NCBI GenBank assembly: GCA_015486055.1
Contig: WFSJ01000025.1
Span: 1,189 to 65,188, forward strand
Direction of reading: 5' to 3'
DNA: 64,000 nucleotides
From: Acidobacteriota bacterium
GTDB lineage: Bacteria > Acidobacteriota > Aminicenantia > S016-38
Each line of letters opens with the position of its first letter. Positions within the stretch are counted from its first letter, which is position 1. The notes below the pieces were generated by a model that did not search any database, was not told the origin of the DNA, and saw nothing but the letters and a program-made list of their open reading frames with translations. Shown here one piece after another: positions 12,793 through 29,016 of the stretch. The position numbers and the translations under genes were made by a program.

Positions 12793-14424
<1,632 letters not shown>

Positions 14425-16345: not shown

Positions 16346-17168
16346 CAAAAAGCCTCCTGAGAGCCTCCTTATATTTTTCAACTGTCCTAAAAACTATTTC
16401 CTCTGGAAGATAGGGAGGTGTGGTTTTTCTATCCCAATCTGTGCTTAACAGATAGTCCCTTACAAACTGCTTATCAAAGCTCGGCTGGGGCTTCCCTGGT
16501 TCATAGGATTCAAGTGGCCAGAATCTTGAAGAATCTGGTGTAAGAAGCTCATCTATAAGGATTGGCCTGCCATTTAGAAACCCGAATTCAAGCTTGGTAT
16601 CAGCAATGATTATTCCCTTCTTTAAAGCATATTCATGAGCCCTTGTGTAAATTTCTATGGATTTTCTCATAAGCTCATCTGAAAATTCCCCAGCTATTTC
16701 CCTGTATTCTTCAATGGATATTGGAAGATCGTGACCTTCCCTTGCCTTTGTTGTCGGGGTAAAAAAAGGATGCGGAAGCTTCCCGCTTTCCTTTAGTCCT
16801 TCTCCCACTTCTTGGCCAAAGAGAGTCCCGGTCTTTTTATACTCCCTCCATCCGCTCCCTGCAAGGTATCCCCTTATAACAAATTCAACAGGAATCGGCT
16901 TAGCTTTTCTTACGAGCATTGCTCTTCCCCTGAATTTTTCTGGCACTCCCTTTATCCTTTCATATTTCCATTCAACAAGATGATTTGGGACATCCCTGAA
17001 GAAATTAAACCAGAGTATACTCATCCTTGTGAGGATTTTCCCTTTCTTAGGGATTAGGCTTGGAAGTATAAAATCAAAGGCAGAGATTCTGTCAGTTGCA
17101 ACAATAAGGAGATGGTCCTTATCGTAAATATAAATATCTCTCACCTTTCCCCTTTTGAAAAGTTTCAT
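16332..17168 (-). CDS. purC: phosphoribosylaminoimidazole-succinocarboxamide synthase
   Basis: Contains GKVRDIY and ATDRISAFD motifs. Confidence 0.9.
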   Translation of the reverse strand: MKLFKRGKVRDIYIYDKDHLLIVATDRISAFDFILPSLIPKKGKILTRMSILWFNFFRDVPNHLVEWKYERIKGVPEKFRGRAMLVRKAKPIPVEFVIRGYLAGSGWREYKKTGTLFGQEVGEGLKESGKLPHPFFTPTTKAREGHDLPISIEEYREIAGEFSDELMRKSIEIYTRAHEYALKKGIIIADTKLEFGFLNGRPILIDELLTPDSSRFWPLESYEPGKPQPSFDKQFVRDYLLSTDWDRKTTPPYLPEEIVFRTVEKYKEALRRLFDEKG

Positions 17169-17237
17169 AATCAGATATTAGCAAAATGAATTTTCTTTTA
17201 CAAGTTTATTGGAAATTTCATCTGAATTTGCAAAAAT

Positions 17238-18530
17238 TCACAGGAAGTTGTTCTTCATTCTTTCCCTCAGATAATCTTTAGTTCTTTCAAAGATTCCTGC
17301 CTGTTCTTCTATAACTTTTTCCGCTCCTTCCCAGTTCATCGCAGCTACTTCTCTTATATAGGAAGCTGTCCTCCCGAAATAAAGAGGGGTCATAATGTTT
17401 ACGAGCCTCCTCCTGTTTCTCCTCCACGTATGGTATGTATATGCAAAATCATAAATGATTTTTGCCCACAATTCCGATGAAACCTCAAGATCGTTTCCTT
17501 CTTCTTTTTCAATATAAGCCTGAGTAAGTCCTTCAAATGATTTGGCGGATAATATGGCTTTATAAAATGCCTCAAAATGTTTGAACCCTTCCACGAACTC
17601 TATCTCCATTTTGTTTATATTTACAGAAATTCCCGGAATATCAGGGGAGGAATTCAACCCCGGGAGCACTGGAACGGACTTGCTTCCTCCCGTTTCCATC
17701 CACTTTCCCCTGTATTCTCCCATAAGATAAAAAAGGGTGGAGACTACCTGAGTGAACATCTGGGAAAGGTCTGCTGCCGGGTCCTTGGGGTCGTGAATTT
17801 TTACCCCAAGGTCAGCTTGGGCAATTTTTTCTTTTTCATTCATAGCTATTGTGCTCATCCATACATCTATACCAAACTTGGCGACATCTGTATCCCATAC
17901 ATCCTTTGATATATAGAACTCAGCCATTTCACCTGAAATGCCGAAGTCACCGCCAATGGGTTGTCTCACCCTTTTACCATAAAGAGCTCTTAGTAGAGGA
18001 TATACAATCATATTCGTTATTGTGCCATCGTATTTATGTCTCCTATAATAGGGAAACACAAATTCGTAACCTTCTTTTATCACAGCCTCCCCTAAAAGCT
18101 TTACCCACTCAGGGGTTAAACTCCTGAGGTCAGAGTCAAAAACCACAACAGCTTTCGTGCCGAAATGAGAGGCAGCTTCAAACACGGCCCTGAAAGATGT
18201 TCCTTTACCAGGTAGGCCCCTGTAAATGTCAACATTTTTTTTCACTCCCCTTGGTATCTCCACCATCAAAGCATTTTCCCTCGTGTTGTCGGTAGAGCCC
18301 CCATCTGCCACGAAAATCCCTGTTTTCAGGTTAGGAAAATACTTTCTAAGGCCGAGCCCAGTCTGGGAAATAACATAAGATATCGTTTCCTCATTATTAT
18401 AACAGGGAATGCCAACAAGAAGATCAAGTTTCCCAACCTTTTCTATCCATCTCAGAGTATTGTCTCTCAGAGCTGAATCGTATTTCTTAAAGGACATTTC
18501 CACCTCCAGAAATTCCCTTGTAATATTCAA
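17238..18530 (-). CDS. GT78-like GT-A glycosyltransferase (mannosylglycerate synthase / glucosylglycerate synthase family)
   Basis: RGLPGKGTSFRAVF, FDSDLRSLTPEW, QPIGGDFGISGEMA and KFGIDVWM align with Rhodothermus MGS (RPGKGDGMNTAL, YDADITSFGPDW, QPLGGELL, DWGIDTLY). Confidence 0.55.
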   Translation of the reverse strand: MNITREFLEVEMSFKKYDSALRDNTLRWIEKVGKLDLLVGIPCYNNEETISYVISQTGLGLRKYFPNLKTGIFVADGGSTDNTRENALMVEIPRGVKKNVDIYRGLPGKGTSFRAVFEAASHFGTKAVVVFDSDLRSLTPEWVKLLGEAVIKEGYEFVFPYYRRHKYDGTITNMIVYPLLRALYGKRVRQPIGGDFGISGEMAEFYISKDVWDTDVAKFGIDVWMSTIAMNEKEKIAQADLGVKIHDPKDPAADLSQMFTQVVSTLFYLMGEYRGKWMETGGSKSVPVLPGLNSSPDIPGISVNINKMEIEFVEGFKHFEAFYKAILSAKSFEGLTQAYIEKEEGNDLEVSSELWAKIIYDFAYTYHTWRRNRRRLVNIMTPLYFGRTASYIREVAAMNWEGAEKVIEEQAGIFERTKDYLRERMKNNFL

Positions 18531-19677
18531 GGACTCGCTTAATTATGGTTTTACTGACTTTCTCCTTTGATGCTCTTTCAATCCTCTTTGTTCTCCCATC
18601 CCTGAAGATCAGATAACCTTCGTTCTCCTCAGCGCTGAATCCCACTCCGCTTCTCACAGGGTTTACAAATAAAATGTCCGCTTCCTTTTCAAGCAGTTTC
18701 TTCTTTCCTCTCTCAATAAAATCTCTGGCCTCTGCAGCAAAGGCAACTATTACTTGGTGTTCTCTCTTTTTTTGCGATATCTCTTTTAAAATATCATGAG
18801 TCATCCCAAACTCAATGTTTAGCTTGCCTTCCCTTTTTATCTTTTCTTTAAATCTCCTTACAGGTTTAAAGTCGCCAACTGCTGCTGTCATAAAAAAAAT
18901 GTCAAAATCTCTTCCCTTCAACCTCTTCCTTAACTCATCTACCGCATCAAATCTTTCCGTTTTAACAAATGTTTTCTCACAGGAAGAGGCAGAAAGTAGA
19001 AGGAGAACATCTGCTCCCATAAGGGCTGCTTCATGTGCTATCGCAACTCCTTGCTTACCAGAAGAGGAATTTGAGATAAATCTAACATCGTCAATAAATT
19101 CCCTCGTTGCTCCCGCCGTAACCAGAACTTTCACCCTTTTCATTTCCTTTCCAAGGCCTGAAATTACATTGAAAACTATCCTTTTTGGTTCTGCCAGTCT
19201 CCCTTCCCCCTCTTCCTTACATGCAAGATATCCTGACTCAGGCTCAATTATGAAAACCCCATCCTCTTTCAATCTCTTAAGATTCCGCTGGGTTGCAGGA
19301 TGAAGGAGCATTTCCTCATTCATAGCAGGAGCTAAAAACACAGGCTTTTTACAGGCTAAATAAAGGGAACTTAAAAAATCATCTGCTATACCGCAGGAAA
19401 ATTTTGCAATTACATCAGCGGTGGCAGGAGCAATTAAGAGAGCCTCCGAGTTCTCACACAGTTCAATATGTTCAAGACCACTTTTTAAATCTCTAAACTG
19501 GCTCGTTATTACATCTTCTCCTGATAAAGACCGGAAGGTAAGAGGAGATACAAAATTGGTGGAGTTTTCGGTCATAACAACCTTTACAGCCCATCCTCTT
19601 TTCTGGAACTCCCTGAGAATTTCAATAGCTTTGTATGCAGATATTGATGCTGTAACTCCAAGAATTACTTTCTTCAT
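18487..19677 (-). CDS. coaBC: bifunctional phosphopantothenoylcysteine decarboxylase / phosphopantothenate-cysteine ligase
   Basis: An N-terminal flavoprotein domain (GVTASISAYK) is followed by a C-terminal ligase domain. Length is 396 aa. Confidence 0.9.
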   Translation of the reverse strand: MKKVILGVTASISAYKAIEILREFQKRGWAVKVVMTENSTNFVSPLTFRSLSGEDVITSQFRDLKSGLEHIELCENSEALLIAPATADVIAKFSCGIADDFLSSLYLACKKPVFLAPAMNEEMLLHPATQRNLKRLKEDGVFIIEPESGYLACKEEGEGRLAEPKRIVFNVISGLGKEMKRVKVLVTAGATREFIDDVRFISNSSSGKQGVAIAHEAALMGADVLLLLSASSCEKTFVKTERFDAVDELRKRLKGRDFDIFFMTAAVGDFKPVRRFKEKIKREGKLNIEFGMTHDILKEISQKKREHQVIVAFAAEARDFIERGKKKLLEKEADILFVNPVRSGVGFSAEENEGYLIFRDGRTKRIERASKEKVSKTIIKRVLEYYKGISGGGNVL

Positions 19678-20270
19678 AAGAGTTCCTTTACGAATTCCTC
19701 CATTCTCCTGGTTCTCAGTCTTTCTCCTTTTATTATGGAAGATACTCCATCCACTGCTACTTCAAGTTTGTCATTTACTACTATATGAGTGAAAACATTG
19801 TAAAGGGAGAGTTCAAATACTGATTTTTCAAACCTTTCTTTTATAGCCTTTTCAGATGTATCCTTTCTGCCCTTCAGTCTCCTCAAAAGCTCTTCCCTTG
19901 ATGGAGGAACAATCAGGATTCTTATACTATTCGGAAATAATTTCTTAATAGAAATAGCCCCCTGAATATCTATATCAAGAAGCACATCTCCTTGCTTTCT
20001 TCTCTTGTTGAGTTCCTTCTTTGAAGTGCCGTAAAAATGGTTATATACCTCAGCCCATTCAGCAAATTCATTTTCGTCTATCATCCTCATAAATTCTTCC
20101 CTAGAAACGAAATAGTAATCTCTTCCGTTCTTCTCCTTCCCCCTTGGCCCTCTCGTTGTGTGGGAAACTGAGAATACAATACTCTCTAAATTATTCATTA
20201 CTCCTCTTGCTACCGATGTCTTCCCAGCGCCGGATGGTCCCGAAACAACAATTATAAGGTTTCTATTCAC
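19674..20270 (-). CDS. gmk: guanylate kinase
   Basis: P-loop is SGPSGAGKTS. Also contains HTTR.PR..E..G.DY. Confidence 0.9.
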   Translation of the reverse strand: MNRNLIIVVSGPSGAGKTSVARGVMNNLESIVFSVSHTTRGPRGKEKNGRDYYFVSREEFMRMIDENEFAEWAEVYNHFYGTSKKELNKRRKQGDVLLDIDIQGAISIKKLFPNSIRILIVPPSREELLRRLKGRKDTSEKAIKERFEKSVFELSLYNVFTHIVVNDKLEVAVDGVSSIIKGERLRTRRMEEFVKELL

Positions 20271-20517
20271 CTGTAATATCCCCCTCTATTCTCATAATTA
20301 CAGTGGTTGGAGAGATAGCAGATACTATGATGTGTCCGCTGTCAGTCACTATCACAGTTTTCTCCTGTCTTCCCATGGTGGCATCTATAAGCATTCCCCT
20401 CTCCTTGGCAGAATCTTTCAACCTTTTTACAGGAAGGGAATCAACAGAAAGGATTGCTATAATTCTATCTCTCATTACGGCATTTCCAAATCCTATGTGA
20501 ATCATCTTGTTCATCAT
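20263..20517 (-). CDS. remA: DUF370 family protein (RemA/YlzA-like)
   Basis: GFGNAVMRDRIIAI...VKRLKD...GMLIDATMGRQEKTVIVTDSGHIIVSA matches DUF370. Synteny yloC-remA-gmk-coaBC is conserved. Confidence 0.8.
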   Translation of the reverse strand: MMNKMIHIGFGNAVMRDRIIAILSVDSLPVKRLKDSAKERGMLIDATMGRQEKTVIVTDSGHIIVSAISPTTVIMRIEGDITGE

Positions 20518-21365
20518 TCTAAATTATGAATTTGCTCCCTTATTTCTTCAACAGTCGTTTTTATAGCTATTGCCCTTTTTATAATCTCGGGGTTTGTTGT
20601 CTTTGAATTAAGGGTATTGGCTTCCCTCAATATTTCCTGAGCTACAAAGTCCATTTTCTTTGAACCATCCCCCATTGACTTGTTAAATTCCTCAAGGTGA
20701 AAGCCTATTCTTGAAACCTCTTCAGAAATATCATACCTTAAGGAAAGAATTGCAGCTTCCTGAATTATTCTATTCTCATCAACATCAACGGACATTTCTC
20801 TTATTTTCCTTTCAATCTCCTCCCTCATTCTATCTTTCTCACCTGAGAAGATTTTATCTATCTCCACCTTTTTCTTTGTGATTTTCTTCACCTTTTCTCT
20901 AATGTATTTTCTTATCCTTTCCCCCTCCTTCATTCTGTTCTTTTTAAGTGCTTCAAGAACTTTGGCTAAGGAAGAGAAAATAAATTCCTTTTCCTTATCT
21001 GCAAAGCCATCTTCATTGAAGGAAAGTTCTATTACCCCAGGAATTCTCAATATTGCATCAAGGGAAAGGGGTGCAAAGCCTGAAAAAGTTCTTAGCTCCC
21101 TTAAAATCGCGCTTATAGCTTCTCTGTTTATGTAAACCTTCTGTTTCTCTGGTGATACAAACCTGATCTCTATTGTTATTTCCACTCTTCCCCTTTTGAA
21201 GTAATTCCTTACAATTTTCCTTATGTCTTCTTCAAGGGGCCTTAAGAAAAAGCCTCCTTTGATCACAATATCAAGATATCTGTTATTAAGGCACCTTGCC
21301 GAGATTCTCATATCAAAGGAAGAACTAGAAAAATTTCCCTCTGAATATCCTGTCATTGATTCCAT
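20514..21365 (-). CDS. yloC: YicC/YloC family endoribonuclease
   Basis: 283 aa with MTGY at the N-terminus. Family-typical length and synteny support the call. Confidence 0.75.
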   Translation of the reverse strand: MESMTGYSEGNFSSSSFDMRISARCLNNRYLDIVIKGGFFLRPLEEDIRKIVRNYFKRGRVEITIEIRFVSPEKQKVYINREAISAILRELRTFSGFAPLSLDAILRIPGVIELSFNEDGFADKEKEFIFSSLAKVLEALKKNRMKEGERIRKYIREKVKKITKKKVEIDKIFSGEKDRMREEIERKIREMSVDVDENRIIQEAAILSLRYDISEEVSRIGFHLEEFNKSMGDGSKKMDFVAQEILREANTLNSKTTNPEIIKRAIAIKTTVEEIREQIHNLE

Positions 21366-23132
21366 TTAGACCTCCATTTGTGCTTTGTATAAACGTGAGT
21401 ATTTTCCCTTTCTCTTCAATAGCTCCTCATGGTTTCCTTCTTCTACGATTTTTCCATCCTCTATAACTATTATTTTATTAGCCATCTTAACAGTTGAAAG
21501 CCTGTGAGCTATTATCACAGTTGTTCTTCCTTTGGTTATCTCCTCAAGGGCTTCCTGAATCTTTTTCTCCGATTCTGAATCAAGGGATGACGTGGCCTCA
21601 TCAAATATAAGTATCCTGGGGTTCTTTATTATTGCCCTTGCTATTGAAATCCTCTGCCTCTGTCCCAAGGAAAAGTTTACCCCTTTCTCCGAGAGTCTTG
21701 TATCGTATTTAGAAGGAAGAGAGGATATAAAATCATGGATATGGGCTGCCTTTGTTACAGCTTCAAGTTCTTCATCTTTCACGGAATCCATCCCATAGGC
21801 GATGTTTTTCCTTACTGACTCATTAAACAAAAGGACATCCTGGGTTACCATTCCTATTCTCTTCCTGAGCCATTTCAGGTCATATTCCTCAACTTTTATC
21901 CCATCAATTAATACTTCACCCTTTAAAGGTCTGTAAAAACCGAGAAGAAGATTCACAATGGTAGTTTTACCTGCGCCTGACTCTCCAACTATCGCAAGCT
22001 TTTCTCCTGGTTTTAGACTGAAATTCACACCCCTAAGAACTGATTTACCTGAGTTATAGGAAAATTCCACCTCTCTAAATTCTATTTCACCTTTAAGTTC
22101 AGAGGGCCTGTAATTCCCCCCTATTTTTTTATACCTTTCTCCTAACTGCAAAAATTCATTGAGACTTTCCACAGAAGCGCCCCCTTGATGAAGGAGATTG
22201 TTTGCACTGGAAAGCCTCTTTATAGGCGTATAAAGATAAAATACAGAAGCTATAAAGGTTGTAAACTGTCCCGGTGTCATTGTCCCCTGCCTTATCATCT
22301 TAGCACTTATATAAATAAGGACAGCTGCAATGATTCCTCCTATAAATTCAAGAAATGGGGAGGAAAGAGTCCACACTTTTACGAATTTCATGTTGACATT
22401 GTAGTTTTTCTCGTTCGTCTCAGAAAATCTTTTCTTCTCATATTTTTCTGTACTGAAAGCTCTTACAACTCTTATTCCACTTATAACCTCGGAAATTCTC
22501 CTGGATATTTCTCCTATGGATTCTTGCCTTTTTTCAGTAAGAAACTTTATAACCTTTCCGAAAATTATAATGGGAACCGTAGCTATGGGAATCATAAGAA
22601 GAGCAAGGAGGGAAAACTTCGGGTTATTTGTTATTATAACCACTATTAGGGCAAAAACAGTCAAACTTTCCCTCACCATCTGAACAACCCCATTTGATAC
22701 AGCTCTTTCAAGTATGTCCATTTCGTAAAGAAACCTTGAGGAAATTTTACCGCTGTGAAAACTATCAAAAAACCTGAGGGGGGCTTCTACTATCTTTGAA
22801 AATACTCTATCCCTTAGTTCCTTTATGATCCTCTGAGCAAGAGCTCTGGTAGTGTAATTGGAAAGGAAGGTAAAAATAGCCTTGGAAAGGAAAACCACGA
22901 GAACCAGCAGGGGTATTACAATAGGAGAGGAAAGATCTAAATACTTTGATATGAATTTTCCGAACTGAAATCCCTTTGCATTGGTTTGGGGGGCTACAGA
23001 AAAAAGATTGTCCATTATAGGCTGAAGTATAAGGGCAGCAGCTGCAGTAAAGGCGGCGGCGAAAGCTGAGTAAAGGAGGGCAAGGGCAATTCTTCCCTTA
23101 TATGGTATCAGAATCTTTATCAGTGATTTCAT
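21366..23132 (-). CDS. ABC exporter, fused permease/ATPase (MsbA-like lipid exporter)
   Basis: Six TM helices are followed by Walker A (GESGAGKTT), signature (FSLGQRQR) and Walker B (ILIFDE) motifs. Confidence 0.85.
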   Translation of the reverse strand: MKSLIKILIPYKGRIALALLYSAFAAAFTAAAALILQPIMDNLFSVAPQTNAKGFQFGKFISKYLDLSSPIVIPLLVLVVFLSKAIFTFLSNYTTRALAQRIIKELRDRVFSKIVEAPLRFFDSFHSGKISSRFLYEMDILERAVSNGVVQMVRESLTVFALIVVIITNNPKFSLLALLMIPIATVPIIIFGKVIKFLTEKRQESIGEISRRISEVISGIRVVRAFSTEKYEKKRFSETNEKNYNVNMKFVKVWTLSSPFLEFIGGIIAAVLIYISAKMIRQGTMTPGQFTTFIASVFYLYTPIKRLSSANNLLHQGGASVESLNEFLQLGERYKKIGGNYRPSELKGEIEFREVEFSYNSGKSVLRGVNFSLKPGEKLAIVGESGAGKTTIVNLLLGFYRPLKGEVLIDGIKVEEYDLKWLRKRIGMVTQDVLLFNESVRKNIAYGMDSVKDEELEAVTKAAHIHDFISSLPSKYDTRLSEKGVNFSLGQRQRISIARAIIKNPRILIFDEATSSLDSESEKKIQEALEEITKGRTTVIIAHRLSTVKMANKIIVIEDGKIVEEGNHEELLKRKGKYSRLYKAQMEV

Positions 23133-24084
23133 TTGTAAACTTCAGAGCTTTGAACCCTATTTCTATAGCATTAAGGACAGAGCCCCTTTTTACATTGTCA
23201 AATACTGCCCAGAGCCAGAATTTGCCGTCCTCGCCCTTTTTTATATCTGAGACATGGACGAAGAAACCCTCTTCCTCATAAAATCTTGAGGGAGAAATTT
23301 TTCCTTTTTCAATCATTACATACTGGCTGGAAGAAATGGATTCCTCAAGCTTTTTTATAGATTTAATTCCGTTCAATTTCAAAAATATCAAAGCCGAATA
23401 TCAGTGAAAGATCCCGGACCTCATAATGATGCTGTAAAAGTCAGGTATCCCTGTTGCTTTCCTTATTTCCTTTACAACCTTCAGTTCCTCCTGTATGAAC
23501 CTTCCCTTCCCCTTTCTTCCCCTTTTGGGAAAGAGGTCGAAAGCAAGTATGTCTTTGAGAACTTTTTCTGGAATTTCCTCCATATTCAGGAGATTCACTG
23601 CTTGGGAAAAAAGCTCATCCATTCCGCCTTCACCGCTCTCTGATACAGGCTCAATAAGGGCAGAAAAACCGTAATCAATATATTTTGAAACGGGATAAAT
23701 AACATGGGAAATTCCTATGGAACCCGGAAGAGGATTTTCAAATTTTCCTCCTTTTATTTCCCTATCGTTTAGTCCGCTCACAATAGTCGGAAGTTCTTCC
23801 CTTGTTCCCGAAAGGTCTACTGAAATCCTCGATGAGTTAAATATTTCGTCCTCAACTGGAACAGTAAAAAATGCCAAATCAAGCGTCGGCATCTCATCCT
23901 TGGTGGGATTCAGAACAACCTTGGCCTCATCTCTGAAAGAGTCGAAAAGAGCATATTTTCCTATTCCCGGTTCATAAAGATAAAAATCATCAAATTCAAC
24001 TTTTATCTTTTCAAGAGTTTCCTTAAGAGTTTTGCCCCTGAGGTTTTTAACCCCGATTATGGCAGCTTTAAACTTCCTGTTCAT
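23098..24084 (-). pseudogene. aspartate-semialdehyde dehydrogenase-like gene interrupted by a single in-frame TGA (codon 23401-23403); the catalytic Cys motif is not conserved
   Basis: ORF 23401-24084 aligns with the Asd NAD-binding and central domains. ORF 23098-23391 aligns with the Asd C-terminus (LWAVFDNVKRGSVLNAIEI vs LWVVSDNLLKGAAWNSVQI). Both are in the same frame, separated only by TGA plus 3 codons. ENPLPGSIG replaces the active-site ANPNCSTI. Confidence 0.5.
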
Positions 24085-24841
24085 TTTCCTCTGCAGTTCT
24101 AAATCTATCCTTCAAAAAACTCACTAAAGAAAAAATAGGGCCTGATATTGCATATCCGTATGCCAGAAAAAGTAAGGTCTTGGTTGGCCAAGCAGCCAAT
24201 GCAGAAAGAGCTATGGAAAAAAAGAAAAGTGTTAGATAATGTCTTTTGGATTTCAGATTTACATCCTTGAAGCTCCTGTACTTCATTTTAGATATCATAA
24301 GAAAAGAGAGGAAAAAGACGATGGCACCCAATATAATTGGAAACAACCTGCTTTCGGGAGGATGTTCAAAGAACAAAACAGTTGACACAAGAACTACACT
24401 CGCAGATGGAATGGGCAGCCCAACAAAGTGTTTTTTTGAAGATATCCCCTTCGAGGTAATAACATTGTATCTTGCCAGTCTAATGGCTCCTCCCGCAATA
24501 AAAAGGAAAGAAACGAAAAATCCGAGCTTTGGGAAATTCTTGAGTGCCCATAGATAAATTAGGAGCGAAGGGGCAACTCCAAAGGAAACTATATCAGCAA
24601 GAGAGTCTAATTCCCTTCCCAATGGAGATGTACTCCTTAATGCCCTTGCCGTTCTACCATCCATCAAATCCATAAATGTAGCTAAAATTATAAAGAGAGA
24701 GGAAATATCAAATCTTCCCTTTACTGCAAAATTCATGGAAACAAAGCCAAAATAAAGATTCAGCATCGTCAAAACAGAGGGAATAAAAAACACAAGGTTC
24801 AAATTTCTTACTCTTCTTGTCCTCCCTGTTCCTTTTTTCAT
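24068..24841 (-). CDS. pssA: CDP-diacylglycerol-serine O-phosphatidyltransferase (CDP-alcohol phosphatidyltransferase family)
   Basis: DLMDGRTARALRSTSPLGRELDSLADIVSFGVAP is the CDP-OH phosphatidyltransferase signature. Confidence 0.85.
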   Translation of the reverse strand: MKKGTGRTRRVRNLNLVFFIPSVLTMLNLYFGFVSMNFAVKGRFDISSLFIILATFMDLMDGRTARALRSTSPLGRELDSLADIVSFGVAPSLLIYLWALKNFPKLGFFVSFLFIAGGAIRLARYNVITSKGISSKKHFVGLPIPSASVVLVSTVLFFEHPPESRLFPIILGAIVFFLSFLMISKMKYRSFKDVNLKSKRHYLTLFFFSIALSALAAWPTKTLLFLAYGYAISGPIFSLVSFLKDRFRTAEENEQEV

Positions 24842-25458
24842 ATCTTCCTCCTTCCAAGAATGCTCTCGCCGGCCTTTATTTTATCTCCTTCCTTTACTTC
24901 TATCTCAAAGTCAGGGGAAAAATAAAGATCAACCCTTGAACCAAACATAATTATCCCTATTCTTTCCCCCTTTTTCAAGGAATCTCCCGGGGAAATATAT
25001 GTCTTTATCCTTCGGGCTAATATTCCAGCTATCATCTCAACTATAAACCTTTCCCCTTTAGATTCTAATTCAATTATCGCTTTTTCATTTTCCACTGATT
25101 CCCTCTTATATGCAGGTATGTGGCCTCCGCCCCTCCTCTTCAAGGAAATTACTTTCCCATCCACTGGCGATCTATTAACATGAACATCAAGAGGTGACAT
25201 AAAAATGCTCACCCTTCTGAATGATCCTTTCTTTTCCGGATAGCCCATTTTCTCTATACTCATAATTTTCCCATCGGCAGGGGAAACGATGATCCCATCT
25301 TCCCCCGGTGTATTCCTTTCAGGATCCCTGAAAAAAAACAGCATGAGGAAAATTAGCAGGACAAAAATACAGGCCAAACACGAAAGGGAAGCGAGAAAAA
25401 ATATAAGAGAAACAGCAAAAAGGGGTATAACAAAATAAAGAGATTCCTTAGCGATCAT
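24838..25458 (-). CDS. psd: phosphatidylserine decarboxylase (short archaeal-type proenzyme)
   Basis: Contains FFRDPER and SPADG motifs. It overlaps pssA by 4 nt. Confidence 0.8.
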   Translation of the reverse strand: MIAKESLYFVIPLFAVSLIFFLASLSCLACIFVLLIFLMLFFFRDPERNTPGEDGIIVSPADGKIMSIEKMGYPEKKGSFRRVSIFMSPLDVHVNRSPVDGKVISLKRRGGGHIPAYKRESVENEKAIIELESKGERFIVEMIAGILARRIKTYISPGDSLKKGERIGIIMFGSRVDLYFSPDFEIEVKEGDKIKAGESILGRRKI

Positions 25459-25678
25459 TTCCTTTCTCCATTTCTTTTACCAGGATCTCGTGCATCCTGT
25501 CTTTTACTCTAAGCTTGAGCTTTTTAAGCTTTTTCACTTCTGTTTTCTCATCAGAGGTAAGAGCAATTCTTGAAAGAAGCTTTTCAATCCTTCTTTCATA
25601 TTCTTGATGTTGCTGATAAAGTTCCCTAAATTCATCGTTTTCCCTCGCAAGTATTTCTTTAAGCTCTTCTTCCTTCAT
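25448..25678 (-). CDS. DUF465 (YdcH-like) small coiled-coil protein
   Basis: 76 aa. The pattern EYERRIEKL...EVKKLKKLKLRVKDRM is typical of DUF465. Confidence 0.6.
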   Translation of the reverse strand: MKEEELKEILARENDEFRELYQQHQEYERRIEKLLSRIALTSDEKTEVKKLKKLKLRVKDRMHEILVKEMEKGNDR

Positions 25679-25706
25679 TTTACCTCCTAATTCATAGTAT
25701 ATATCA

Positions 25707-26309
25707 TTAAATCCTTTCTATCCTGCTCTTAAAAAATTTCGTTTCCCTCTCAGGATCATCCGAAAGAAAGATTGCAGAGGATATAGCTATTATATCAGGT
25801 CTAAGAGCCAGGACTTCGTCTATATTTTCCCTGTTTATCCCCCCAATTACGCAAATATCTATTTTTAATTCTCTTTTTGCTCTTGTTAAAGTATCAGGGG
25901 TCAATCTCACTGCTTCTGGCTTTGTGCTCGTCGGAAAGATCGAACCGAAGGCCACATAAGTTGCCCCTACTCTCTCAGCTTTTCTCCCTCTTTCAATATC
26001 ATTGTAACAGGACACGCCTAAGACCTTATCCCTAAGAATCTTCTTAGCTGAGACGGGTCCCATGTCATCCTTACCTATGTGCGCTCCATCTGCTCCAAGT
26101 TCCACAGCAAGGCGGGGAAAATCGTTGATTATAAGCTTAAAATCATATTTATCCTTCAATTTTAGGATTCCCTCTGCAATTTTTCTTGCCTCCTCTTTTT
26201 CTTTGACCCTGAGTTGAATCCAGTCAATACCACCTTGGGCCGTTTTCTTCACCCTCTCAAGGAACTCCGCTCTTCCTAAATTCCCGGTTGCAATCAGATA
26301 AAGTTTCAC
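25707..26309 (-). CDS. thiE: thiamine-phosphate synthase
   Basis: 200 aa TIM-barrel with typical ThiE blocks (LYLIAT, IQLRVKE, GADGAHIG). Confidence 0.85.
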   Translation of the reverse strand: MKLYLIATGNLGRAEFLERVKKTAQGGIDWIQLRVKEKEEARKIAEGILKLKDKYDFKLIINDFPRLAVELGADGAHIGKDDMGPVSAKKILRDKVLGVSCYNDIERGRKAERVGATYVAFGSIFPTSTKPEAVRLTPDTLTRAKRELKIDICVIGGINRENIDEVLALRPDIIAISSAIFLSDDPERETKFFKSRIERI

Positions 26310-26692
26310 TTTATATCCAGTGTCAATTCTGAGAAAAATTCCCTTGTAAATTCGTAAAATTCTTCCCAGTATTTCCTAACTATACATTCGTTAAAAGTAG
26401 GACATTCTGCTGGCACAGGTCCCATACATGGCACAGGACTTAGCCCTTCATCTACCGCTTCCATTATACTGAGCCAATTTATCTTCTCTTTTTCCCTTGC
26501 AAGAACATACCCTCCCCCTGCTCCTCTTTTTCCTTTAACTAAATCTGCCTTTTTCAATTTAAGGAAAACCTGTTCAAGAAATCTTTCTGGGATCTTTTCC
26601 TCTACAGATATCTTCCTTAAAGGAACTGGGACTTTCCTTGAAAGATGGAGCATCGCTCTTATAGCATATCTTGAATATGTTGTAAACTTCAC
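26306..26692 (-). CDS. Rrf2 family transcriptional regulator with a 3-Cys cluster
   Basis: The N-terminal winged-HTH (YAIRAMLHLS) and the C...C.....C cluster (PVPCMGPVPAECPTFNEC) are Rrf2 features. It overlaps thiE by 4 nt. Confidence 0.8.
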   Translation of the reverse strand: MKFTTYSRYAIRAMLHLSRKVPVPLRKISVEEKIPERFLEQVFLKLKKADLVKGKRGAGGGYVLAREKEKINWLSIMEAVDEGLSPVPCMGPVPAECPTFNECIVRKYWEEFYEFTREFFSELTLDIK

Positions 26693-26738
26693 ATTCCTAT
26701 TATAACAAATTGGCTAAGAAATATGGGGAAATAAAAAA

Positions 26739-26812
26739 CGCCCCCGACGGGACTTGAACCCGTGCTGCCGCCTTGAAAGGGCGGTGTCCTCACCTGGCTA
26801 GACTACAGGGGC
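26739..26812 (-). tRNA. tRNA-Glu (anticodon UUC)
   Basis: Hand-folded cloverleaf: acceptor GCCCCTG/CGGGGGC, anticodon stem CCGCC/GGCGG with loop CTTTCAA, T-arm ACGGG-TTCAAGT-CCCGT. CCA is not encoded. Confidence 0.85.
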
Positions 26813-26815
26813 GAA

Positions 26816-26888
26816 TGAGCCGTACAGGAATTGAACCTGCGACTCCCGGCTTAAAAGGCCGGTGCTCTACCTACTGAGCTAACGGCTC
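26816..26888 (-). tRNA. tRNA-Lys (anticodon UUU)
   Basis: Hand-folded cloverleaf: acceptor GAGCCGT/ACGGCTC, D-arm GCTC-AGTAGGTA-GAGC, anticodon stem CCGGC/GCCGG with loop CTTTTAA. It sits 3 nt from tRNA-Glu. Confidence 0.85.
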
Positions 26889-26915
26889 AAGAAAAGAAAT
26901 TTTACCAAAAATTCT

Positions 26916-27605
26916 TTACTTGGTTAACTCCTCAATATTCTTAACTACCCATCTTCCTCTTATAGGGGTGGTAACTCCTTCCTTTGTAAGTTCATATCTC
27001 ACAAGATAAAACTTGAATTTCTTTGTTTTCCCCTGGGAATCTGTTCCTTCAATTACAATCTCCTCTGAGTAAACTTTCCCAGCAAGCTTTTCAATCTCAG
27101 AAATGTCCCCCACAGAAAGGGCCATAAGCTTTTTCTCATTACCAAACTCCATCTGGGCATTGTTATAATCTTCCTTTGCTTTAAGGAATTGAGCCTTAAG
27201 ATCATCAGCTTTCGTCTTCAGCTCCTCGTATTTCTTTTTCTTTGCTCTTTTCCTGGCCCTTGACCATTTCTCGTATTTCTTGTTGAAATCGTCAAAATCA
27301 AGCTTGGCAAGTGCAGCCTTTTCCTGAATGTCTTCCATATTCTTCTTGGCTTCATTCATCTTTTTCTGAAGATCTGCAATTGTGGTCTTACCTTCCGCAG
27401 GTTGAGTTGTGGAGATTACCTTCCATCTTGCAAGGTCAACCTTAACAGGGACAAGGGAAATTTTAACGATGCTGTCCTTATCACCTATTCTCACAGCCTG
27501 GATGTAACGGCTTATAAGAGTCTTTTCGGGGGAACCACACCCAACTAATACAATGGAAGAAATCACCATAAGCCCTCCAATTGCCAAAACCATTAATTTC
27601 TTCAT
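26916..27605 (-). CDS. lipoprotein (signal peptide with LVGC lipobox), K/E-rich, unknown function
   Basis: MKKLMVLAIGGLMVISSIVLVGCGS is a lipoprotein signal peptide. The central region is a coiled coil. Confidence 0.5.
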   Translation of the reverse strand: MKKLMVLAIGGLMVISSIVLVGCGSPEKTLISRYIQAVRIGDKDSIVKISLVPVKVDLARWKVISTTQPAEGKTTIADLQKKMNEAKKNMEDIQEKAALAKLDFDDFNKKYEKWSRARKRAKKKKYEELKTKADDLKAQFLKAKEDYNNAQMEFGNEKKLMALSVGDISEIEKLAGKVYSEEIVIEGTDSQGKTKKFKFYLVRYELTKEGVTTPIRGRWVVKNIEELTK

Positions 27606-27606
27606 T

Positions 27607-29016
27607 TTACGCCTCCTTTATTAATTTGTTTTCAAAATCTATCTTCTTTTCAAGCATTTCAGAAAAACTTAAAAGTCTATCTTCATTATACCACTTTGAA
27701 AGAATCTGGAAACCTATGGGAAGACCTTTTTTTGAGAGAGAAAAAGGTATGGAAATAGCTGGTAGACCTGATAAGTTAGCGAAAATGGTGAATCTATCTT
27801 CAAGGTACATTGAAATTGGGTTCTGTCTCTCGCCTATTTTGAAAGCAACATCAGGAGTCGTGGGAAGGGTCAGAAATTCCCCTTCTTTGAAAATCTCGTT
27901 CATCTTATCTCTTAGAAATTCTCTATAAGAAATCCCTTTCCCGTAGTAATCATCGTAATAACCACTTGAAAGAACAAATGTTCCAAGAAGAATTCTCCTT
28001 TTAACTTCCTCCCCAAATCCTTTTGTCCTCGTTCTGAAATACATATCCTTTAGTTTATTTGCTTCTGCCTTCAACCCATATCTTACTCCATCATATCTTG
28101 CAAGATTAGAACTCGCCTCTGCATTGGCAACTATATAATATGCTTCAATTGCATGTGTCATGAAAGAGAGATCCACAGGTTTCCCTTTACCCCCCATAGA
28201 TATAAGAAGCTTTACAAAGGAAGAAAACTTCTCTTTTACTTCCTTAGAGGCTCCTTTCAAAAATTCACCCTCTGGGTATATAAAGGTGAAGGGCTTTTCT
28301 ATATGCTTGAAGATCTCACCATAAGAAGGAACAGGCAAGGAAGAAGTTGTCGAGTCCCTTGGGTCATCCCCTGAAATAATTGAAAAAACATAACCCACAT
28401 CTCTAACAGAATTTGCAATAATCCCTATTTGATCCAGAGATGACGCAAAGGCAACAAGTCCGTATCTCGAAATTCTTCCATAGGTGGGTTTAAATCCGAC
28501 TACTCCACAAAAAGAAGCGGGCTGTCTTACCGAACCTCCAGTATCGGAGCCAAGGGCAAATTTAACCATCCCTGAAGCAACAGCAGCCGCAGAACCACCA
28601 CTTGACCCTCCAGGAACTCTTTCTATGTCCCATGGATTCCTTGTGGGGCCAAAAGCTGAGTATTCTGTAGAAGAACCCATGGCAAATTCATCAAGATTTG
28701 TCTTCCCTGAAAGCGAAAATCCAGCTTCCTTCAACCTTTTCCAAGCAGTTGCCGAATACGGGGCAATATAGTTTTCAAGAATCTTTGACCCACAGGTGGT
28801 TGGGAAACCTTTAATAATTATGTTATCTTTCACCCCAACGGGGATTCCATTTCCCTCATTTAAATATTTTACCTTTGTGATGAAAGCATTTACCCCGGGT
28901 TCAAGCTCTTCTCTTCTCCTCGCAAAGAAATTCCATACTTCTTTCGGACTTACTCTTTTTTCCCTCTCAAGCTTGAGGATTTCCTCTATGGAAATTCTGG
29001 AAAAATTCATATTCAC
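27607..29016 (-). CDS. gatA: Asp-tRNA(Asn)/Glu-tRNA(Gln) amidotransferase subunit A
   Basis: The amidase signature GGSSGGSAAAVA and catalytic Ser-cisSer-Lys context are present. Confidence 0.9.
   Translation of the reverse strand: MNMNFSRISIEEILKLEREKRVSPKEVWNFFARRREELEPGVNAFITKVKYLNEGNGIPVGVKDNIIIKGFPTTCGSKILENYIAPYSATAWKRLKEAGFSLSGKTNLDEFAMGSSTEYSAFGPTRNPWDIERVPGGSSGGSAAAVASGMVKFALGSDTGGSVRQPASFCGVVGFKPTYGRISRYGLVAFASSLDQIGIIANSVRDVGYVFSIISGDDPRDSTTSSLPVPSYGEIFKHIEKPFTFIYPEGEFLKGASKEVKEKFSSFVKLLISMGGKGKPVDLSFMTHAIEAYYIVANAEASSNLARYDGVRYGLKAEANKLKDMYFRTRTKGFGEEVKRRILLGTFVLSSGYYDDYYGKGISYREFLRDKMNEIFKEGEFLTLPTTPDVAFKIGERQNPISMYLEDRFTIFANLSGLPAISIPFSLSKKGLPIGFQILSKWYNEDRLLSFSEMLEKKIDFENKLIKEA

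Follow-up and report, generated by a model that had tools for sequence, protein, structure and literature searches.

The interrupted Asd-like gene and its neighbors

The window, a 64,000-nucleotide stretch of contig WFSJ01000025.1 from an Acidobacteriota bacterium, contains a minus-strand gene (24084..23098) that resembles the aspartate-semialdehyde dehydrogenase (Asd) gene and is interrupted in its ORF translation by one in-frame TGA codon (23403..23401). The stop reads 'tca' on the plus strand at 23401-23403 and closes a 227-residue ORF (24084..23401) that starts with ATG. Past the stop, the frame is unchanged and proceeds through Y-S-A to a TTG codon at 23391 and up to a TAA codon at 23098, forming an ORF of 97 residues. 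Further TTG codons follow shortly at 23382 and 23376. The joined product comprises 328 residues and contains no Cys. The initial annotation had fused the two same-frame ORFs (227 and 97 residues) into a protein of about 328 residues whose reading frame stays intact beyond the stop, and the translation agrees on both points, with no frameshifts or other stops in the gene.

The N-terminal fragment of the Asd-like protein (227 residues; 23404..24084, minus strand), which was deposited separately as protein P0001, consists of a degenerate Rossmann domain, an NPLP motif in place of NPNC and the start of the dimerization domain. The C-terminal remainder (23098..23400, minus strand) has its first possible restart codon in the TTG at 23391, is annotated by the source as a 94-residue product (P0015) and holds the invariant W290, W292, D296 and N297 block. 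The assignment of the entire interval (23098..24084) to one Asd/USG-1-like gene of a Cys-less family, 328 residues long when intact, is based on the translation, full-length orthologs (P0002-P0013), an intact and identical protein (P0014), a profile match to Asd in the PDB and Foldseek.

Upstream of the Asd-like gene on the minus strand are pssA (CDP-alcohol phosphatidyltransferase; 24068..24841), recognized as an ORF and by PF01066 on the identical gene of contig L092, and psd (phosphatidylserine decarboxylase, short type; 24838..25458), recognized as an ORF and from the L092 gene. A gene for a small DUF465 protein (25448..25678, minus strand; PF04325 in L092, L093, L094 and L095) opens a conserved DUF465-psd-pssA-AsdLike cassette. 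The downstream gene encodes an MsbA-like ABC exporter (21366..23132, minus strand; ORF and L092) and starts with an ATG located 35 nt inside the 3' end of the Asd-like gene. The overlaps of the Asd-like gene with pssA (17 nt, 24068-24084) and with the exporter gene (35 nt, 23098-23132) coincide with those reported initially. The exporter ATG has no clear Shine-Dalgarno sequence in front of it. The case for co-transcription is made from the gene overlaps, because promoter and terminator scans over 17000-27700 did not rise above shuffled sequences. The window contains no canonical asd gene.

A Cys-less branch of the Asd/USG-1 fold

The relation to Asd is weak for the single sequence, which scores 33.8 bits against Pfam PF02774 (cutoff 26) and at best 52 bits against the NCBIfam Asd models (cutoff 223). 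At the profile level, the family matches Vibrio cholerae Asd2 (asd_B/PRK14874 type, PDB 2qz9) end to end over positions 3-314 (E = 8.3e-24), and the N- and C-terminal halves each match a true Asd separately. The predicted fold likewise retrieves 2qz9 in Foldseek (E = 3e-22, TM 0.74), and the top matches are all Asd; the AF2 model behind this search is of moderate quality (pLDDT 74.9) and poor over residues 149-182, which form one of the best-conserved stretches. The original placement in the Asd family is thus borne out by profile and fold.

The catalytic roles of the Cys, His and Gln residues of Asd were taken from PMC3276109, in which the C136S mutation of the active-site Cys (NPNC) left less than 0.01% of the activity. 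In the window protein, NPNC is replaced by NPLP, and Pro120 occupies the nucleophile column. The acid-base column (His277 in Haemophilus influenzae numbering), which is His in 41/41 Cys-bearing Asd sequences of the same alignment, is filled by Tyr229 in the frame past the stop and by Phe in P0012 and P0013. The TGA codon aligns to the residue immediately before this column, in line with its earlier placement at or next to the catalytic His block. The catalytic Gln of Asd is Glu in the Asd-like family. The NADP-binding motif GxxGxxG is represented by G11-V-K-N14-L-R-G17 (GVKNLRG), in which the middle Gly is Asn. The loss of the active-site Cys and the degeneration of GxxGxxG had both been noticed in the initial annotation, and both hold in the alignment.

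These losses are shared across a broad family. The comparison covered 161 sequences, composed of the top 150 representatives and the core orthologs; 120 of them share the Cys-less motifs (xPHP for NPNC and GxxS/T/NxxG for GxxGxxG), and the 41 Cys-bearing sequences keep every catalytic residue. The nucleophile column of the 120 Cys-less sequences contains Pro, Ala or Ser. The middle Gly of GxxGxxG is retained in 14/120 Cys-less sequences, which mostly carry Ser, Thr or Asn there, versus 39/41 true Asd sequences. The equivalents of the substrate-binding residues Arg270 (R222) and Glu243 (E200) are invariant in 14 Aminicenantes-type sequences; in the broad Cys-less clade, the Arg270 column is Gln in 61/120 and the Glu243 equivalent is kept in 73/120. 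His227 is invariant throughout the broad family; it precedes the lost catalytic His by two residues and probably faces the same side of the strand.

Compared with Asd, the Cys-less proteins have the same two-domain fold and are colinear from end to end, and the Aminicenantes subfamily additionally keeps the E200 and R222 equivalents and the W-x-V-x-DN block at the C-terminus. They differ from Asd in having Pro for Cys, Tyr or Phe for His, Glu for Gln and a degenerate GxxGxxG, and their genes are found in a phospholipid operon rather than in an aspartate-pathway context. Judged from these sequence features, the Cys-less proteins are best read as a branch of the Asd/USG-1 fold without the features needed for ASADH chemistry, that is, as pseudo-enzymes. 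Given the invariant His227, a different chemistry may be carried out instead.

To our knowledge, USG-1 is an Asd paralog without a known function or a functional definition. For the soil branch of the Cys-less family, the best-matching solved structure is USG-1 (Escherichia coli Usg / Pseudomonas aeruginosa homolog, PDB 2hjs; 203 bits, E = 4.5e-59). The two have in common the QAPVF motif, in which Gln stands for the carboxylate-binding Arg, and both lack the catalytic His, which is Asp in 2hjs. Unlike the Cys-less family, 2hjs retains GATGSVG and a Cys (SSPCAV). For the Aminicenantes branch, the motif is RSGIFH, and the scores are 63.6 bits to 2hjs and 87.5 bits to Asd2. The Cys-less family may offer an initial way into the function of the USG-1-like branch of the Asd superfamily.

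Public labels for the family diverge. NCBI names its members 'Asd/ArgC dimerization domain-containing protein', and JGI names them 'aspartate-semialdehyde dehydrogenase', which is probably wrong. None of the nine Cys-less members scanned with NCBIfam models passes a cutoff (0/9), and the control, a true Asd (P0028), scores 427 bits. Metabolic reconstructions that score Cys-less genes as asd would overstate the completeness of the lysine, threonine and methionine pathways.

The window gene is not a decayed copy of canonical Asd. The orthologs had been considered as potentially intact canonical Asd proteins with a Cys active site; they are intact, but all of them are Cys-less. Because every ortholog lacks the Cys, its loss is ancestral and conserved. 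By sequence, the gene is a member of a conserved family of putative pseudo-enzymes that has taken one recent hit.

The in-frame TGA

The contig L092 is nearly identical to the window over 13098-34084, and a base-by-base comparison gives 99.990% identity over 20,987 bp with two mismatches and no gaps. One mismatch falls on the TGA codon (23401..23403, minus strand), where L092 has CGA (Arg228) and encodes an intact 328-residue protein; the differing base is 23403, T in the window and C in L092 on the coding strand. The other mismatch is at 24915 in psd and changes Pro in the window to Ser in L092 at a variable position of Psd. P0014, which is encoded on L092 and belongs to the same cluster, is identical to the joined window protein and has Arg at the stop position. 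All 13 orthologs aligned (45-62% identity) also carry Arg at the TGA codon, and those with DNA read use AGG, CGT or AGA. The ortholog comparison called for initially therefore yielded sense codons wherever the codon was read. The TGA arises from one C-to-T transition at residue 228, whose Arg codon CGA is a rare one. The product is thereby cut to 227 residues and loses the invariant C-terminal third.

Programmed recoding, whether by selenocysteine insertion, stop-codon read-through or reassignment of TGA to sense, had been put forward for this codon and is extremely improbable. Several features are compatible with it: the frame is intact on either side of the TGA, the operon overlaps are kept, and the TGA adjoins the former catalytic-His column, which is Cys in 12/120 members (such as FHCLA in L013). 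These Cys-containing members are distant, with about 20-25% identity, and all 13 orthologs have Arg rather than Cys at the TGA codon itself. The RNA after the TGA folds like shuffled sequences: a 91-nt segment from just before the TGA onward has a minimum free energy of -13.5 kcal/mol versus a shuffle mean of -13.15 kcal/mol (z = -0.12), and no Rfam family matches after the TGA even at E <= 10. The search for a SECIS element 3' of the TGA, which had been suggested along with selenocysteine, thus returned nothing in the form of a fold comparison and an Rfam scan. No tRNA-Sec gene is present in the window, in which ARAGORN finds tRNA-Glu and tRNA-Lys only.

Usage of TGA in the rest of the window points in the same direction. 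TGA is the commonest stop and terminates 27/52 long ORFs, which upholds the initial remark that it is a genuine stop elsewhere in the window, and ORFs of up to 1071 residues run uninterrupted under table 11. We know of no bacterial code in which TGA has been reassigned to Arg. The gene resembles bacterial selenoprotein genes in its in-frame TGA inside an otherwise intact frame, but differs from them in that the homologous residue is Arg instead of Cys, no stem-loop follows the UGA and the sister allele is CGA. The CGA allele, the ortholog Arg, the lack of a hairpin and of an Rfam match and the use of TGA as the main stop together effectively rule out selenocysteine, read-through and code reassignment. 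The TGA is instead a plain nonsense variant or an error in the consensus, because a nearly identical assembly lacks the one-base change. An old pseudogene is also dismissed, as the gene has no frameshifts or further stops and is one base apart from an intact allele. Of the options originally listed, only the last is left standing, a nonsense mutation of very recent date or an error in sequencing.

A real and very recent nonsense allele, representing a loss of function in this population that is too young for further decay, has about an even chance of being correct. It would require a single transition, at the only Arg codon that a transition can turn into TGA. Apart from the two differences, the 21 kb compared are identical and free of indels, and the second difference at 24915 looks like a genuine SNP nearby. 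On the other hand, look-ups of the truncated protein and of the window Psd allele found no second independent assembly with the TGA. The inferred cost would also be high, given that the invariant C-terminal block is lost and that the ABC exporter, gmk and coaBC could suffer polar effects.

A consensus or assembly error, by which a T was miscalled in this MAG in an organism that truly has CGA, is a serious possibility that we place somewhat below an even chance. The gene index has the intact allele on two further contigs, and the truncated protein occurs in one NCBI record only. The gene is strongly conserved, with 70 invariant columns among 14 sequences, and the exporter downstream shows no obvious Shine-Dalgarno sequence of its own and would lose its coupling through the stop. 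Against an error, a consensus base in an assembly is usually supported by many reads, and the Pro/Ser difference at the variable Psd position resembles ordinary strain polymorphism.

A functional split gene, in which the 227-residue product assembles with a second product of about 94-97 residues re-initiated at a TTG lying 10-25 nt past the stop, is highly unlikely. The TTG codons at 23391, 23382 and 23376 are close behind the stop, and the source annotation lists the 94-residue product, but no ortholog is split and the sister allele is unsplit. No Shine-Dalgarno-like sequence precedes the TTG codons. In the model, the break would fall between adjacent strands of the dimerization-domain sheet (E216-223 and E230-237).

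Whether allele or error, the stop codon itself is biologically unimportant and serves as a warning: when a MAG shows an in-frame TGA in an otherwise intact-looking frame, sister assemblies should be consulted first. For the locus as a whole, we are confident in a Cys-less pseudo-enzyme of the Asd/USG-1 fold beside psd-pssA that has acquired a recent CGA-to-TGA nonsense change or consensus error and involves no recoding.

Association with phosphatidylethanolamine synthesis genes

The position of the Asd-like gene is conserved in several lineages of Acidobacteriota (Aminicenantes, Thermoanaerobaculia and soil members). The psd-pssA-AsdLike order with DUF465 ahead, either as a separate gene or as a thiE fusion, is the arrangement wherever the upstream DNA could be read, namely in the Aminicenantes loci, in L013 (Thermoanaerobaculia), in L093 and in L094. 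Locus L096 has psd directly before the Asd-like gene, and the short contig L095 has DUF465-AsdLike with neither psd nor pssA in between. Across 80 soil loci, the gene immediately upstream is pssA in 73/73, and farther upstream lie psd in 58/58 and DUF465 in 45/48; these loci, obtained through a narrow-alignment metagenome pattern scan, are close relatives of one soil lineage and count as about one lineage for synteny. The 17-nt overlap between pssA and the Asd-like gene is repeated in five ortholog loci, and overlaps of 23, 4 and 67 nt are observed in three more distant members.

The location directly after psd-pssA, usually overlapping pssA, suggests that the Asd-like protein would be co-produced with the enzymes of phosphatidylserine and phosphatidylethanolamine synthesis and would serve alongside them as a binding or regulatory subunit without catalytic activity. 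The protein would then be a putative non-catalytic partner of phosphatidylethanolamine synthesis. We tentatively extend this idea to a proposal that we regard as possible rather than probable: the Cys-less Asd/USG-1-like proteins could be a dedicated and previously unrecognized non-catalytic component of phosphatidylserine/phosphatidylethanolamine synthesis in Acidobacteriota. Such a component would be soluble, with its translation coupled to that of PssA, and would regulate PssA and Psd or bind a substrate or a ligand similar to a headgroup. The window TGA allele would in that case amount to a natural knock-out of the component. The Cys-less family, which accompanies psd-pssA in several deep acidobacterial lineages, provides a testable candidate for an accessory factor of bacterial phosphatidylethanolamine synthesis.

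Literature searches on Asd-like/pssA, DUF465/psd and Aminicenantes/phosphatidylserine yielded no relevant paper, and the members scanned stay below every NCBIfam cutoff, consistent with the initial view that no Asd-like protein with a psd-pssA link has been described. As to the co-transcription with psd-pssA and a lipid exporter that was proposed at the same time, the link to DUF465-psd-pssA is conserved, and the ABC exporter follows the Asd-like gene only in Aminicenantes loci.

Organization of the split gene and origin of its stop codon

The Asd-like gene is located on the minus strand and is divided by a single in-frame TGA. Its N-terminal ORF extends from an ATG at 24084 to the TGA at 23401–23403 (plus-strand coordinates) and contains 227 codons. 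The continuation, on the same strand and in the same frame, consists of Tyr-Ser-Ala directly after the TGA and a 97-codon ORF from a TTG at 23391 to a TAA at 23098, and translation across the TGA yields 328 residues. The gene start overlaps pssA (24068–24841, minus strand) by 17 nt, and the first 35 nt of an MsbA-like ABC exporter gene (21366–23132, minus strand) lie within the gene end. The ORFs and overlaps were re-derived and agree with the coordinates and anatomy in the initial annotation, whose observation of an Asd-like gene split by an in-frame TGA and devoid of the catalytic Cys is confirmed.

The truncated 227-residue product (P0001) shares a 90% cluster with P0014, a 328-residue protein that matches the joined window product exactly and has Arg where the stop lies. 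P0014 originates from the contig REYS20-1_SAMN12239305_METAG-scaffold_34 (locus L092), which aligns without gaps to window positions 13098–34084; the 20,987 bp differ at two sites (99.990% identity). At one of these, the first base of the TGA codon, L092 has C and thus the codon CGA. The second mismatch, at 24915 (minus strand), affects psd: the window has CCT (Pro) and L092 has TCT (Ser), at a position that is variable among Psd orthologues. The two differences in the 21 kb compared lie within 1.5 kb of each other, in neighboring genes of one operon. The intact allele is present on two indexed contigs. Thirteen further orthologues (45–62% identity, 313–328 residues) are all uninterrupted, and no orthologue exhibits the split. 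The TGA column is Arg in all 13, encoded by AGG, CGT or AGA wherever the DNA was read. CGA is the rarest Arg codon of the window (15 of 1107) and the sole Arg codon that turns into TGA by transition. The TGA is a single C-to-T substitution: a young nonsense allele or else an error in the consensus.

The initial annotation had also offered recoding or selenocysteine insertion as readings of the TGA; the reading that is supported is its other one, a nonsense mutation or sequencing error of very recent origin. The evidence does not support selenocysteine, read-through or reassignment of the code: the relatives have Arg or CGA at this position, the 91 nt starting just 5' of the TGA fold no better than shuffled sequences (z = -0.12), an Rfam search past the TGA gave no match even at E ≤ 10, and ARAGORN found no tRNA-Sec within the window. 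Moreover, TGA is a normal stop that terminates 27 of the 52 long ORFs in the window, and uninterrupted ORFs reach 1071 residues under table 11. The in-frame stop is ordinary.

Truncation would remove the last third of the protein, including the invariant W290, W292, D296 and N297 block, and in the AlphaFold model the break falls between two neighboring strands of the dimerization-domain sheet. The exporter ATG (23132) sits within the lost reading frame. The region upstream of this ATG (23133–23160, minus strand; …GCTCTGAAGTTTACAAATG) has no recognizable Shine-Dalgarno sequence, in contrast to the start of the Asd-like gene, where GAGGA lies 4 nt upstream. Translation of the exporter may therefore require coupling with the Asd-like frame, and the stop may reduce this coupling.

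Relationship to aspartate-semialdehyde dehydrogenase

As a single sequence, the window protein scores 33.8 bits against Pfam PF02774 (cutoff 26) and only 52 bits against the NCBIfam Asd equivalogs (cutoff 223). The family profile gives full-length alignments to solved Asd structures (2qz9, E 8e-24; 8juo, E 2e-23), and the top Foldseek matches of the AlphaFold model (pLDDT 74.9, pTM 0.78) are all Asd (2qz9, E 3e-22, TM 0.74). The relationship is real but distant.

The roles of the catalytic residues of ASADH have been reviewed, and the C136S and H277N mutants retain <0.01% and 1% activity, respectively (PMC3276109). In an alignment to solved Asd, NPNC, which contains the Cys nucleophile, is NPLP in the window protein, with Pro120 in place of Cys. 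Likewise, the conserved Gln is replaced by Glu145, the catalytic His by Tyr229 and GxxGxxG by G-V-K-N-L-R-G. The carboxylate-binding Arg (R222) and the amino-binding Glu (E200) are retained. The protein has an Asd fold without the nucleophile or the acid-base His and with a disrupted dinucleotide motif, and it is under purifying selection.

A Cys-less family

Against 1.84 billion representative proteins, the family profile had 3191 matches, and motifs were compared in 161 sequences (the top 150 representatives plus core orthologues). The Cys is present in 41 sequences, which retain every catalytic residue. The other 120 lack it and share motifs of their own: xPHP(A/V) where Asd has NPNC, (E/Q)PxSExG, (Q/R)xPVFH followed by G/S/R and Y/H, and WxW ahead of the DN block. 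The family is a conserved Cys-less paralogue rather than a broken Asd. This supports the pseudo-enzyme observation of the initial annotation and places it in a broad family of Acidobacteriota. Comparison by hhalign shows clear full-length homology between the Aminicenantes and soil subfamilies (probability 100%, E 2.8e-45). No paper on the family or its psd-pssA linkage was found in a literature search.

Q161, F226, H227 and D296 are invariant across 59 diverse members of the family. Arg at residue 228, where the TGA lies, is a specific feature of the Aminicenantes subfamily; elsewhere the column clearly varies, being Gly in most of the remaining members and Cys in 12 of the 120 sequences. One distant homologue, from a Thermoanaerobaculia MAG (L013, 2041–3066), has Cys (TGC) in this column (SAFHCLA), which was judged a coincidence as regards the TGA.

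The best solved relative of the soil branch is the P. aeruginosa USG-1 homolog 2hjs (203 bits). Like the soil branch, 2hjs has Gln for the catalytic Arg and lacks the catalytic His, which in 2hjs is replaced by Asp (QAPVFFGD); unlike the Cys-less family, it retains the Cys and GxxGxxG. Given Gln and Asp in these catalytic columns, USG-1 itself is unlikely to be a standard ASADH.

None of nine Cys-less members scanned passed the NCBIfam cutoff; a true Asd scores 427 bits. NCBI labels these proteins "Asd/ArgC dimerization domain-containing protein" (Candidatus Angelobacter, Solibacter, Sulfotelmatobacter, Terriglobales). JGI labels them (P0171, P0174 and others) "aspartate-semialdehyde dehydrogenase", which is probably a systematic misannotation; as a result, metabolic reconstructions of Acidobacteriota could overstate how complete the aspartate pathway is.

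Gene context and proposed role

The window order is Rrf2, thiE, DUF465, psd, pssA, Asd-like gene, ABC exporter, yicC, remA, gmk and coaBC, and Aminicenantes-type loci of sufficient length share this order. Among GTDB species representatives, the closest is a Candidatus Aminicenantes MAG (51% identity). Among distant members, the order is DUF465-psd-pssA-AsdLike in L013 and L093, DUF465-psd-pssA-AsdLike-LptE-holA in L094, psd-AsdLike in L096 and DUF465-AsdLike in the short contig L095. In 80 soil-metagenome loci, 60–89% identical to the soil orthologue P0040, pssA is immediately upstream of the Asd-like gene in 73/73, psd is upstream in 58/58 and DUF465 in 45/48, counting loci with enough flank; as close relatives, these loci amount to about one extra lineage. 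Except in L095, where it follows DUF465, the gene comes directly after pssA or psd in the loci examined, usually overlapping it. The constant partners are psd, pssA and DUF465.

The downstream partner depends on the lineage: Aminicenantes have the MsbA-like exporter, whereas in the soil group (L094, L097–L176) LptE and then holA follow, in 65/65 loci with enough flank. Both LptE and the exporter belong to envelope-lipid export or assembly.

The family represents an uncharacterized variant of the Asd/USG-1 fold, and its link to phospholipid synthesis is testable. Tentatively, the Asd-like protein might be non-catalytic, would be made together with PssA and Psd, and could contribute to phosphatidylserine or phosphatidylethanolamine synthesis as a subunit with a binding or regulatory function. 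A different chemistry is possible because the invariant His227 lies two residues ahead of the lost catalytic His column.

In L006 (3799–4653) and L008 (3796–4647), two Aminicenantes loci, thiE (TMP-TENI) is called as 283–284 residues including the DUF465 region; Pfam marks DUF465 only on the product from L008. In the window (25707–26309 and 25448–25678, respectively), L001, L004 and L092, thiE and DUF465 form separate genes. A tRNA-Lys(TTT) and tRNA-Glu(TTC) pair (26738–26889, minus strand) is located immediately upstream of the Rrf2-thiE-DUF465-psd operon.
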